This document shows, piece by piece, positions 1-3,000 of a stretch of DNA of 15,922 nucleotides. The DNA comes from a virus: UHGV virus genome UHGV-0144335; one strand, written 5' to 3'. A program made the position numbers. Position 1 is the first letter of the stretch; the number at the start of each line of letters is the position of its first letter.

Positions 1-3000
1 TTTTCAAGCAGAAGACGGCATACGAGATAAGGCCACGTGACTGGAGTTCAGACGTGTGCTCTTCCGATCTATCAGGAGACTTTGGCATTTATCCGCGAGG
101 CAGCCTATCTGGTGCTGTAGTGGAATGAAGCGGATATAACCTAAATAAGGTTAAACATTAATCAGACATGGCTCTGCTGTGTGAAATCTGAAAATTTACA
201 GCAGTCATTGTGCATCAGTTTTTAACAGAGAACGTCAGAAGGTGACATGGCAAAGCTGGACTGGAAAAAGCTGGAGCAGGCATTTCGACGCGAACATGTC
301 AAAACCGGCATAAAGCTTCAGGACTGGTGCCGTCAGAACAATATCAGTTATGACACGGCTCGGCGGTACATTAAACTGCGCAAACACTCCCCCAGAAATA
401 CAGAGAAAAGTGCGCAGAAAAATGCGCAAATTGATGATCAAAAAAGTGCGCAGAAATCTGACGGCAACTCCAGTCATGACGAGCCTTCAGGCGATGATGG
501 TTGTGATGAAAAATGCGCAAATTTGGCAGAAACGAAACGGACTCGTGGTTCCAGACTTTTGCCACCTTCAAATGCTTTTTCTCAGCGTAACACCCACGCC
601 GTCAGACACCGTGGATACGCGAAGTATCTCGAGGCAGATAACCTCATAGATGATGCAGTCGGAATGGAACTTGCCGATGAACTGGTGTTTACCCGGGCCC
701 GCGCACTTTCAGTAACAGGAACACTGAAAAAAATGTTCGCCGACCTGAAAGAGGCGGCTGACGTGGAAACCCGCGTTGCTCTGTACGACAAAATACTCAA
801 AGCTGAACAGGCTCTTGACCGGAATATTGCCCGTATCGAGTCAATTGAACGCTCATTGCTGACGCTGGACGTTCTGGCTGAAACAGCACCAAAACTTCGT
901 GCTGACCGGGAAAGAACCAACGCTGCCAGAGATAAACTCAGAGCGGAAACCGATATTCTGACCAGCCAGCGTCGGGGCGTTGTTACGCCTGTCAGTGACA
1001 TCGTGTCATCGCTGCATGAAATGAGTAATTCGGGGAGACTGGATGACATTCCGGAAGAATGAACCGCGATGTGATGAACCGTCAGAAATGACAGAGGCCG
1101 AACAACGTCTGTTCATCATGACTAAACTGAGCAATCCCTGGTGGCGGCTCAATCATCTCTACAAGATACAGAACGAAAAAGGTGAGCTGGTCACCTTCAG
1201 AATGCGACCGGCGCAGCGCCAGTTGTTCCGGAGCATGCACAATAAAAATATTATCCTGAAAGCACGCCAGCTGGGGTTTTCCACGGCCATTGATATTTAT
1301 CTTCTCGACCAGGCATTATTCATACCGCATCTCAAATGCGGGATTGTCGCTCAGGATAAACAGGCTGCCAGTGAAATTTTCCGCACCAAAATTGCTGTAC
1401 CGTTTGATCATCTTCCTGACTGGCTGAGAGCCTCATTCACCATCGTTGAACGTCGTAGCGGAGCCAGCGGTGGCTATATCCTGTTTGGGCACGGCTCGAG
1501 TATCCAGGTGGCAACCTCATTCCGTTCAGGTACGGTGCAGCGCCTGCATATCTCAGAGCACGGCAAAATTTGCGCAAAATATCCGGCTAAGGCGAAAGAG
1601 CTGCGAACCGGTACACTTAATGCCGTCTCTGATGAGTGCATTATTTTTGATGAGTCCACTGCTGAAGGTGTGGGTGGCGATTTTTACGAGATGAGTAACC
1701 GGGCACAGGAAATCACTGCATCAGGGCTGGCGCTGACGCCACAGGATTATAAATTCCATTTTTACGCCTGGTGGCAGGATCTCAAATACAGCGCCAGAGT
1801 GCCGGAAAGCGGACTTAAGCTGTCACGGGAAAAAACAGCGTATTTTTCTGCGGTTGAAAAAGCAATGAACATCACGCTTACCGATGAGCAGAAACACTGG
1901 TACATCTGCAAGGAAACTGAACAGCGTGAGGAAATGAAGCAGGAGTTTCCCTCAACACCACAGGAGGCGTTTCTGACGTCCGGACGACGGGTGTTCAGTG
2001 CGGAAAGCACGCTGCAGGCAGAGTCATTCTGTTCGCCACCGCTGATTGTTTATGACATTGAACCGGTTACAGGAACGAAGACCAAAGCGCAGTCTCTGCG
2101 TGACGGGAATAAAGCCGAACAGCACCGGACGCTGATGAATTATCTGCTGGTCTGGGAGCTACCAGATCCGGATGAAGAGTATGTATGCGGAGCGGATACC
2201 GCTGAGGGGCTGGAGCACGGAGACCGCTCATCGCTGGATATCATCAGATGTAGTAATGGTGAGCAGGTAGCCCACTGGTTTGGTCATCTCGATGCGGAGC
2301 TTTTCGCTCATCTCATTGCGCAGGTCTGCCGTATGTACAACAACGCGTTTGTGGGGCCGGAGCGTAACAATCACGGACATGCCGTTATCCTGAAACTCCG
2401 GGAACTCTATCCGACGCGTTATATCTACAACGAACAGCACCTTGACCAGGCATATGACGACGATACGCCCCGTCTTGGCTGGCTGACAACCCGCCAGAGT
2501 AAACCGGTCCTGACTGAGGGAATGAAAACGCTGCTGAATAACGGCCTGTCGGGGATCCGCTGGACGGGCACATTATCAGAAATGAACACCTACGTTTATG
2601 ACGCGAAAGGCTCCATGAATGCACAGGAAGGCTGTTTTGATGATCAGCTTATGAGCTACATGATTGCCCAGGAGATGCGCGCCAGAATGCCGGTGAGGGT
2701 AAGACAGAAAACGGATAAACGCAGAACCACACACTGGATGGCTCACTGATGAAAAATGAAACTAATACCATGGCGACGAAAAACGACAACGGAGCCACGC
2801 CGCGTTTTTCTCAGCGCCAGTTACAGGCGCTTTGTTCTGATATTGACAGTCAGCCTAAATGGCGCGATGCCGCAAACAAGGCCTGTGCGTATTACGATGG
2901 TGACCAGTTGCCACCAGAAGTTCTTCAGGTACTGAAAGATCGCGGTCAGCCGATGACTATCCATAACCTCATCGCGCCTACCGTTGATGGTGTTCTGGGA

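Follow-up and report, generated by a model that had tools for sequence, protein, structure and literature searches.

TGCGCA hexamers inside a small terminase gene as the probable pac recognition array of a 933W-type phage

Introduction

The closest described counterpart of the element treated here is the pac site of phage P1, which was reportedly worked on by Sternberg and Coulby in 1987 and by Skorupski et al. in 1994. The element itself, an array of five palindromic TGCGCA hexamers, lies inside the small terminase gene (terS) of a phage represented by 15,922 nucleotides of DNA, UHGV virus genome UHGV-0144335; this whole stretch is referred to as the window. The P1 pac site comprises 161 bp inside the pacA gene and contains seven hexamers with Dam sites and one site for the integration host factor (IHF), and synonymous recoding of the hexamers lowered packaging about 9-fold (PMC10028697). 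In the annotated P1 genome the TGATCA/G hexamers are located at nt 194-233 (four) and nt 324-352 (three) of pacA, just 3' of the sequence coding for the ..NTARRYLR.. helix and in mixed codon phases. Between the two clusters lie the IHF site (nt 256-268) and the primary cuts (nt 276-285).

In phage SPP1 the pacL and pacR boxes of the pac site are bound by the small terminase G1P, and in phage lambda the R elements of cosB are bound by gpNu1. These two systems share with the window the principle of short repeats in or near the terminase genes, bound by the helix-turn-helix (HTH) domain of an oligomeric small terminase (PMC9611059). They differ in their repeats, which are longer and not palindromic, and in their small terminases (TerS), whose folds and families are unrelated; lambda, in addition, is a cos packager which needs IHF. 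No sequence similarity of the window system to the SPP1 or lambda systems was found. The pac sites of the P22/Sf6 type resemble the window in that the signal is situated inside terS of a headful, short-tailed enterobacterial phage, and the portal protein of the window is P22-like. However, the pac site of P22 consists of one asymmetric sequence of 22 bp and not of an iterated hexamer array (PMC9611059), and the TerS families are unrelated to the TerS of the window, for which neither Pfam nor the PDB gave a sequence match. According to a 2022 review, it has proved difficult to show that TerS binds pac specifically in P22, Sf6, SF6, and SPP1, and the mechanism is unclear and controversial (PMC9611059).

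We consider it probable that the five TGCGCA hexamers are the pac recognition array of the window phage. P1 pac provides a precedent for this kind of element, and the TGCGCA version in the 933W-type family appears to be undescribed in the open literature, in which we found no description of a TGCGCA array or of a pac site for 933W-type terminases; subscription journals may hold one.

The TGCGCA array in the small terminase gene

The gene carrying the array (247-1062, plus strand) codes for a protein of 271 aa which matches the family phrog_370 ('terminase small subunit') over residues 1-271 (E 1e-117). It had been taken for a small terminase gene in an earlier note on the window, made from the sequence alone, and this assignment is confirmed by the phrog_370 match and by the 933W-type large terminase (TerL) and the P22-like portal encoded downstream. 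The five TGCGCA cores start at positions 377, 411, 423, 447, and 514 with spacings of 34, 12, 24, and 67 bp and are embedded in A-rich flanks, exactly as the note had them. Both direct repeats listed there were found as well: the 15-nt sequence AAAAGTGCGCAGAAA occurs at 406-420 and again at 442-456, and the 16-nt sequence GAAAAATGCGCAAATT at 417-432 and again at 508-523.

Four of the hexamers (377-382, 411-416, 423-428, and 447-452, in codon phases 2, 3, 3, and 3) form a proximal cluster at 373-456 with A-rich flanks. The fifth (514-519), which is read as Cys-Ala in codon phase 1, belongs to a distal site at 508-523 that is the exact 16-nt copy of 417-432. Cluster and distal site are separated by about 51-61 bp. 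This gap (457-507) codes for an acidic stretch and is, by analogy to P1, a candidate region for the initial cut. Relative to the gene, the array extends from nt 131 to nt 273 of terS, and its first base lies eight bases past the end of the sequence coding for helix 3 of the HTH. One TGATCA, the hexamer of the P1 and 933W type, is present at 435-440 between the third and the fourth TGCGCA site. The GATC at 436 is the only one in terS of the window; it is common to Escherichia phage GER2 and is not kept in PhiR12_3.

The array is non-random. Elsewhere in the window TGCGCA occurs six times, and at that rate about 0.06 copies per 150 bp are expected. In 300 first-order Markov simulations, in which all 64 palindromic hexamers were counted over a span of 150 bp, five copies of any palindromic hexamer were never reached (0/300); the maximum per 150 bp was two copies in 223 simulations, three in 75, and four in two.

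It had also been proposed that the cores are spaced near multiples of the helical turn. This did not hold, since sites 2-5 lie 3.24, 4.38, 6.67, and 13.05 turns (of 10.5 bp) away from site 1 and the sites are therefore not on one face of the helix. The iterated peptide KSAQK, which had been noticed together with the repeats, accounts for sites 2-4 but not for sites 1 and 5. The five cores are translated as LRK, SAQ, NAQ, SAQ, and CAN and thus make use of all three codon phases, which was the first sign that the DNA and not the KSAQK peptide is conserved.

An AlphaFold2 model of TerS, built on 17 homologues, predicts N-terminal helices at residues 6-20, 24-30, and 35-41 with a predicted local distance difference test (pLDDT) score of 75-89. 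This three-helix HTH (residues 6-41) is encoded at 262-369 on the plus strand and aligns to the N-terminus of P1 PacA; its helix 3 (YDTARRY, nt 349-369) is presumed to be the recognition helix. Residues 46-112, encoded at 382-582 on the plus strand, reach a pLDDT below 50 and are predicted to be a disordered linker, which is the most variable segment of TerS in the alignments. Long C-terminal coiled-coil helices follow at residues 133-241 (pLDDT above 90). The hexamer array sits wholly in the DNA coding for the predicted linker, just 3' of the HTH segment, and going by the model such DNA would be a place that tolerates embedded DNA signals. Pfam searches with TerS and TerL gave no match at E <= 0.01, and a sequence search of the PDB with TerS yielded noise only (E >= 0.27). 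Nothing better than E 0.12 was found by Foldseek with the whole AlphaFold2 model against the PDB, a search dominated by the C-terminal coiled coil and uninformative for that reason.

Conservation of the hexamer among related terS genes

With a query restricted to the conserved C-terminal domain we obtained 79 terS loci in IMG/VR; 30 more loci came from bacterial assemblies with one genome per species, and GenBank phages were added. In the pooled set the phrog_370 family is represented by 73 distinct 5' regions, 51 of which code for an ARR-type helix 3 ([ST]ARR[YH][IL]K). These 51 stem from nine or more genera of bacteria, ranging from E. coli to Aeromonas. A TGCGCA array with 3-8 copies is present in 51/51 of these DNA sequences, which are related and not phylogenetically independent, as holds for all counts given for them. 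The ARR-type protein clusters are consistent with this pairing (81/81). When all hexamers were counted without bias in nt 100-340 of the gene, TGCGCA was the commonest hexamer in 49 of the 51 sequences; the two exceptions are a sequence with overlapping GTGCGC (L099) and one Xenorhabdus locus (L111). Altogether 309 TGCGCA sites were found, with a density of 25.2 per kb in nt 100-340 vs. 0.37 per kb in about 3 kb of flanking sequence, corresponding to a 68-fold enrichment in the 240-nt segment.

The 309 sites are distributed over all codon phases (216 in phase 3, 66 in phase 2, and 27 in phase 1) and are read as SAQ, TAQ, VRK, CA, AAQ, TAH, MRR, LRK, and other peptides. The codons used for these peptides differ between the array and the remaining sequence. 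Ala-Gln or Ala-His is spelled as nnT-GCG-CAn in 216 out of 240 cases inside the array, whereas only 11 out of 222 cases elsewhere in terS and terL follow this spelling. Likewise, Val, Leu, or Met followed by Arg and a codon starting with A is spelled as nTG-CGC-A in 66/66 cases inside the array vs. 21/69 elsewhere. By this comparison, synonymous positions are fixed inside the array.

At the DNA level the TGCGCA array was found in phages and prophages of Escherichia/Shigella, Citrobacter, Brenneria, Serratia, Yersinia, Xenorhabdus, and several Aeromonas lineages; at the protein level Salmonella, Dickeya, and Erwinia are added. The hexamer is kept down to a TerS identity of about 40-50% (Citrobacter, Yersinia, Serratia, Brenneria, Xenorhabdus, and Aeromonas), while the sites differ in number, in codon phase, in the peptide around them, and in the sequence of the spacers. 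The earlier note had set a DNA signal against the case of relatives that keep the peptide and lose the nucleotides. The opposite was seen, namely that the nucleotides are kept and the peptide changes. The comparison shows that TGCGCA is selected as DNA and not as peptide, and the effect is very large and recurs across genera.

The extended site has the family consensus AAA[C/G]TGCGCA[A/G]A. Over the whole family the spacings between nearest neighbours peak at 9, 10, 12, and 14 bp, roughly one helical turn, and the phasing is loose (Rayleigh R 0.25-0.37). The distal phase-1 site read as Cys-Ala is present in the E. coli, Citrobacter, Brenneria, Serratia, and Yersinia lineages and absent in the Aeromonas type. 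In PhiR12_3 the array has a layout of 5+2 sites.

Co-variation of the hexamer with helix 3

Among the alleles compared, the hexamer co-varies with helix 3 of the HTH. Apart from the pairing of the ARR type with TGCGCA, helix 3 with the sequence NTARTRIK is accompanied by four to five copies of [C/T]GATCA in phages 933W, POCJ13, and VT2phi_272. A Salmonella allele (L115) coding for NTARTQIK carries TGATCA, TGATCA, and CGATCA, placed in the same AAAA-rich frame as the sites of the window. The helix SSAKRYIT of Pectobacterium, Brenneria, and Symbiopectobacterium is found together with five direct copies and one inverted copy of ATTCGCA. In Yersinia phage vB_YenM_210.17, whose TerS belongs to a different family, STAKRYIK goes along with four copies of TGCGAAT; this is the reverse complement of the ATTCGCA motif, and the AKR pairing is thus present in two unrelated TerS families. 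Lastly, a Salmonella prophage allele (L116) codes for an unrelated N-terminal domain (MDMEALKSDY...), and at nt ~130-210 the hexamer array is replaced by direct repeats of TCCGTC(C) and, after these, inverted repeats of GGACGGA. These TCCGTCC/GGACGGA repeats may represent a further specificity cassette.

The allele of 933W, POCJ13, and VT2phi_272 can be compared directly with that of the window. Gene and position are the same, the C-terminal domain is more than 90% identical, and four to five hexamers follow the HTH. The differences concern helix 3 (NTARTRIK vs. DTARRYIK in the window), the hexamer, which in the 933W-type allele is [C/T]GATCA(T) and P1-like with Dam sites, and the encoded peptide ((E/K)(I/T)DH vs. 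KSAQK). The two alleles are distinguished by a swapped block of approximately codons 18-95; to either side of this block their DNA is nearly the same. This suggests that HTH and array move as one cassette. In terS of 933W (L243) four GATCA are situated at nt 142-182, exactly 12 bp apart, and these make up four of the five GATC sites within 1.5 kb. By analogy to P1, this suggests that the GATCA array of 933W could be a pac recognition site sensitive to Dam.

Relationship to PacA and the pac site of P1

The N-terminus of the window TerS is similar to that of P1 PacA (BLASTP E 7e-5, 24% identity). Weak reciprocal matches were obtained in PHROG: terS matches phrog_1711 with E 4.9e-5 and PacA matches phrog_370 with E 1.9e-4, phrog_1711 being the PacA family itself, which PacA matches with E 4e-202. 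These matches amount to a weak, remote homology of the two N-termini.

The two arrays are equivalent in position. In both systems iterated 6-bp palindromes, at least four in number, lie inside the small terminase gene directly 3' of the segment coding for an N-terminal HTH (..W....TARRY[IL][KR]..), and they occur in mixed codon phases with hexamer spacings of 7-15 bp. The enterobacterial lineage moreover has, as P1, a proximal cluster and a distal site that are about 60-100 bp apart. Among the PacA relatives in the phage collection almost all are P1-like (21 records), and Cronobacter phage JK004 alone was informative: in its PacA (70% identity) the positions of the hexamers are kept and the encoded peptide is changed, as in the TerS family.

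The window differs from P1 in the hexamer, which is TGCGCA instead of TGATCA/G; as the window hexamer is without GATC, Dam control would not apply to the window allele. In addition, the C-terminal body of TerS belongs to phrog_370 (271 aa) and PacA to phrog_1711 (397 aa), and the window phage is short-tailed and lambdoid whereas P1 is a myovirus.

The helix-turn-helix and array on other small terminases

Searching with the first 46 residues of TerS, we found small terminases with different bodies, most of which have TGCGCA arrays directly after the TARRYIK helix. Klebsiella phage 5 LV-2017 has six tightly spaced TGCGCA; the region contains nine altogether, and the remainder of the 3-kb locus is free of the hexamer. 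Other bodies with this module and TGCGCA are those of E. coli phages PHB10 and vB_EcoS-611R4, and the TerS of Vibrio phage douglas 12A4 carries the module with five TGCGCA sites. The Klebsiella-type body is homologous to TerS of Bcep22, F116, and Pavtok, which are without the module. The occurrence of the module on bodies of this kind points to domain shuffling among small terminases.

For the reverse search we looked in IMG/VR for three TGCGCA at 9-14-bp spacing and sampled 120 loci. In 79 of the 120 the array was situated in the same open reading frame as a [ST]ARR[YH][ILV] motif and at most 45 aa downstream of it, and at least four further loci are shortened cases of the same arrangement. 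The remainder are mostly simple peptide repeats or high-GC contigs. Two loci of this search, L202 and L217, have TGCGCA triplets just 3' of other HTH-like segments (..SEATARGYISK.. and ..GVSDNTVKKI..) and may be more distant versions of the arrangement.

We tentatively propose, as a possibility and no firmer than that, that the HTH together with its cognate hexamer array is a portable and self-contained packaging-specificity cassette whose variants define a simple protein-DNA recognition code. Taken jointly, the proposal would comprise a code in which helix 3 of the ARR type pairs with TGCGCA, AKR with TGCGAA, and ART with TGATCA, the fusion of the cassette to phrog_370 bodies, to P1 PacA, to Bcep22/F116-like bodies (in Klebsiella, E. 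coli, and Yersinia phages), and to the Vibrio TerS, and its recombination as a unit between phages that encode Shiga toxin (Stx phages).

Function of the array

The earlier note had suggested a pac-like site inside terS. The conservation of the hexamer, its co-variation with helix 3, and the homology and equivalent position of PacA and pac support this suggestion and make a role of the array in packaging recognition probable. The scheme that we infer from this comprises the binding of TerS, the position of the cut, the direction of packaging, and the oligomeric state and stoichiometry of TerS. TerS would be a ring oligomer, as is presumed, with an N-terminal HTH on each subunit, and several of these HTH domains would bind the iterated hexamers embedded in the DNA that codes for the flexible linker of TerS itself. 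Binding to four or five closely spaced hexamers at a time would provide specificity for the phage DNA, and the A-tracts ahead of each site may aid the bending of the DNA around the TerS oligomer. The bound TerS would recruit or position the 933W-type TerL for a first cut nearby, which by analogy to P1 could fall into the gap at ~457-507, and processive headful packaging along the concatemer would follow.

Several observations weigh against the assignment as pac recognition array. The sequences counted share ancestry. P1 and JK004 PacA have ARRY in helix 3 and yet use TGATCA, so that the helix-3 code is not universal. HTH and array adjoin each other, and part of the co-variation could therefore stem from their linkage when cassettes recombine. 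The 933W-type alleles retain one or two distal TGCGCA despite their GATCA-type HTH. One of the two distal sites in 933W has decayed synonymously to TGTGCA, and the distal position in the Salmonella alleles that are not of the ARR type reads TGCGCG or TGCACA; such decay would fit a relaxed constraint after the change of the HTH.

Further points concern the comparison with P1. The layout of the window is 4+1 and that of P1 4+3, and the Aeromonas, Vibrio, and Klebsiella types possess only a single cluster. A consensus scan for IHF sites (WATCAANNNNTTR, at most one mismatch) gave no match in the gap at 453-513; HU or intrinsic bending by the A-tracts could substitute for IHF. A TerL resembling PacB was rejected, the best BLASTP match of TerL to P1 PacB having an E-value of 3.8. 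As to direct data, our literature search found no terminus mapping or TerS binding data for 933W-type phages, and the ends of the window consist of sequencing adapters, which give no information on physical termini.

The alternative that survives best, unlikely as it is, also regards the array as the binding site of the TerS HTH but assigns it a mainly regulatory role, that is autoregulation of terS/terL or the timing of packaging. It is in keeping with the position of the sites inside the transcribed and translated terS, and the comparative data give the cognate pair of HTH and site and not the consequence of binding. However, the only homologous arrangement that has been studied experimentally, PacA and pac of P1, is a packaging site, and TerS proteins are dedicated packaging-recognition factors. 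The module is always found on terminase bodies. Furthermore, signals resembling promoters or terminators are at chance level, a scan of the array region having given nothing above it.

We regard it as very improbable that the hexamers are bound by a factor other than TerS, be it a host or phage protein, a satellite that hijacks packaging, or a restriction-modification system. Palindromic hexamers are typical of dimeric host regulators and of restriction-modification enzymes, and TGCGCA is a type II restriction site. The motif, however, follows the helix 3 encoded just upstream, from Vibrio to E. coli and across the TerS bodies, which would not be expected for a host factor or a restriction-modification system, and the AKR-type motif ATTCGCA is not palindromic.

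Still a little less probable is the explanation that the repeats are a slippage by-product of a low-complexity linker peptide of the KSAQK kind and that the DNA motif is without function. The exact duplications of 15-16 nt, the disordered linker encoded by the region, and the copy number, which varies among close relatives (five in the window, seven in PhiR12_3, and an extra EIDH unit in L047), would all be in line with slippage. But slippage does not lead one to expect a single hexamer read in three frames as unrelated peptides, nor the fixed synonymous positions (216/240 vs. 11/222). It would also leave unexplained why one hexamer is retained all the way from E. coli to Aeromonas and Vibrio amid diverging spacers and peptides, and why it switches together with the HTH helix. 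The tests of codon phase and synonymous sites largely refute this explanation.

The least probable alternative places the function in the RNA, where the palindromic cores would form, for example, a structure in the mRNA or a small RNA. It can draw on the ability of these cores to pair and on one weak inverted repeat (369-382/411-424, 79% complementarity), but the fold of 365-535 is unremarkable (z = -0.90, with 39 of 200 shuffles at least as stable), the only Rfam match is a eukaryotic long non-coding RNA (112-279, E 0.14) far under the gathering score, spacings and flanks vary freely among relatives, and compensatory changes preserving a hairpin were not seen in them.

If the assignment as pac array is right, a pac site readable from the sequence would be at hand for the 933W-type headful class including the medically important Stx1- and Stx2-converting phages, and a compact element of about 150 bp would be available for transducing or packaging vectors, as already done with P1 pac. 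A division of these phages into alleles that depend on Dam and alleles that do not is also predicted. The TerS family can moreover be viewed as a natural experiment in which the HTH helix and a site of 6-7 bp change together in dozens of lineages, and the recognition rule is thereby directly testable. Should the tentative proposal of a cassette apply, packaging specificity would be readable from the sequence and could be reprogrammed, which bears on the cross-packaging of Stx prophages, satellites, and plasmids, and Shiga toxin phages would be polymorphic in regulation, with GATCA alleles sensitive to Dam and TGCGCA alleles insensitive to it. A portable cassette with co-varying specificities may be of more interest than a single site and could make TerS-pac recognition experimentally tractable.

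Origin of the window and neighbouring genes

Positions 1-70 and 15852-15922 of the window are the two strands of one untrimmed Illumina indexed adapter, with the same 8-nt index at both ends (AAGGCCAC and GTGGCCTT), so that the phage DNA proper extends from 71 to 15851. The ends are therefore library artefacts and uninformative with regard to the virion termini, and the start of the contig was rejected as a physical genome end.

The phage is lambdoid and short-tailed and belongs to the Stx-phage group (Sepvirinae); the window covers its head and tail module. The DNA of the window is 98.9% identical to that of phage GER2, in which the counterpart of terS is annotated as 'DNA packaging protein', and 93-97% identical to that of POCJ13 and many Stx1- and Stx2-converting phages. 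Downstream of terS follows terL (1043-2749, plus strand), coding for a 933W-type headful large terminase which matches phrog_2 'terminase large subunit' with E 3.6e-52 and is presumably the nuclease and motor that TerS recruits. The class 'headful (933W type)' is in use for TerL proteins (PMC7317114), and the homologue in PhiR12_3 is annotated as headful terminase. The P22-like portal is encoded at 2749-4893 (PF16510, E 2e-131), and the capsid, a tail fibre with collagen repeats, and tail-tip genes complete the gene order. The tail-fibre-like reading frame at 9445-11349 contains collagen triple-helix repeats (PF01391, E 7e-40) and the phage tail fibre repeat PF03406; its collagen repeats stem from a 45/90-bp tandem array at 10789-11078 with 6.4 copies of 89-96% identity.

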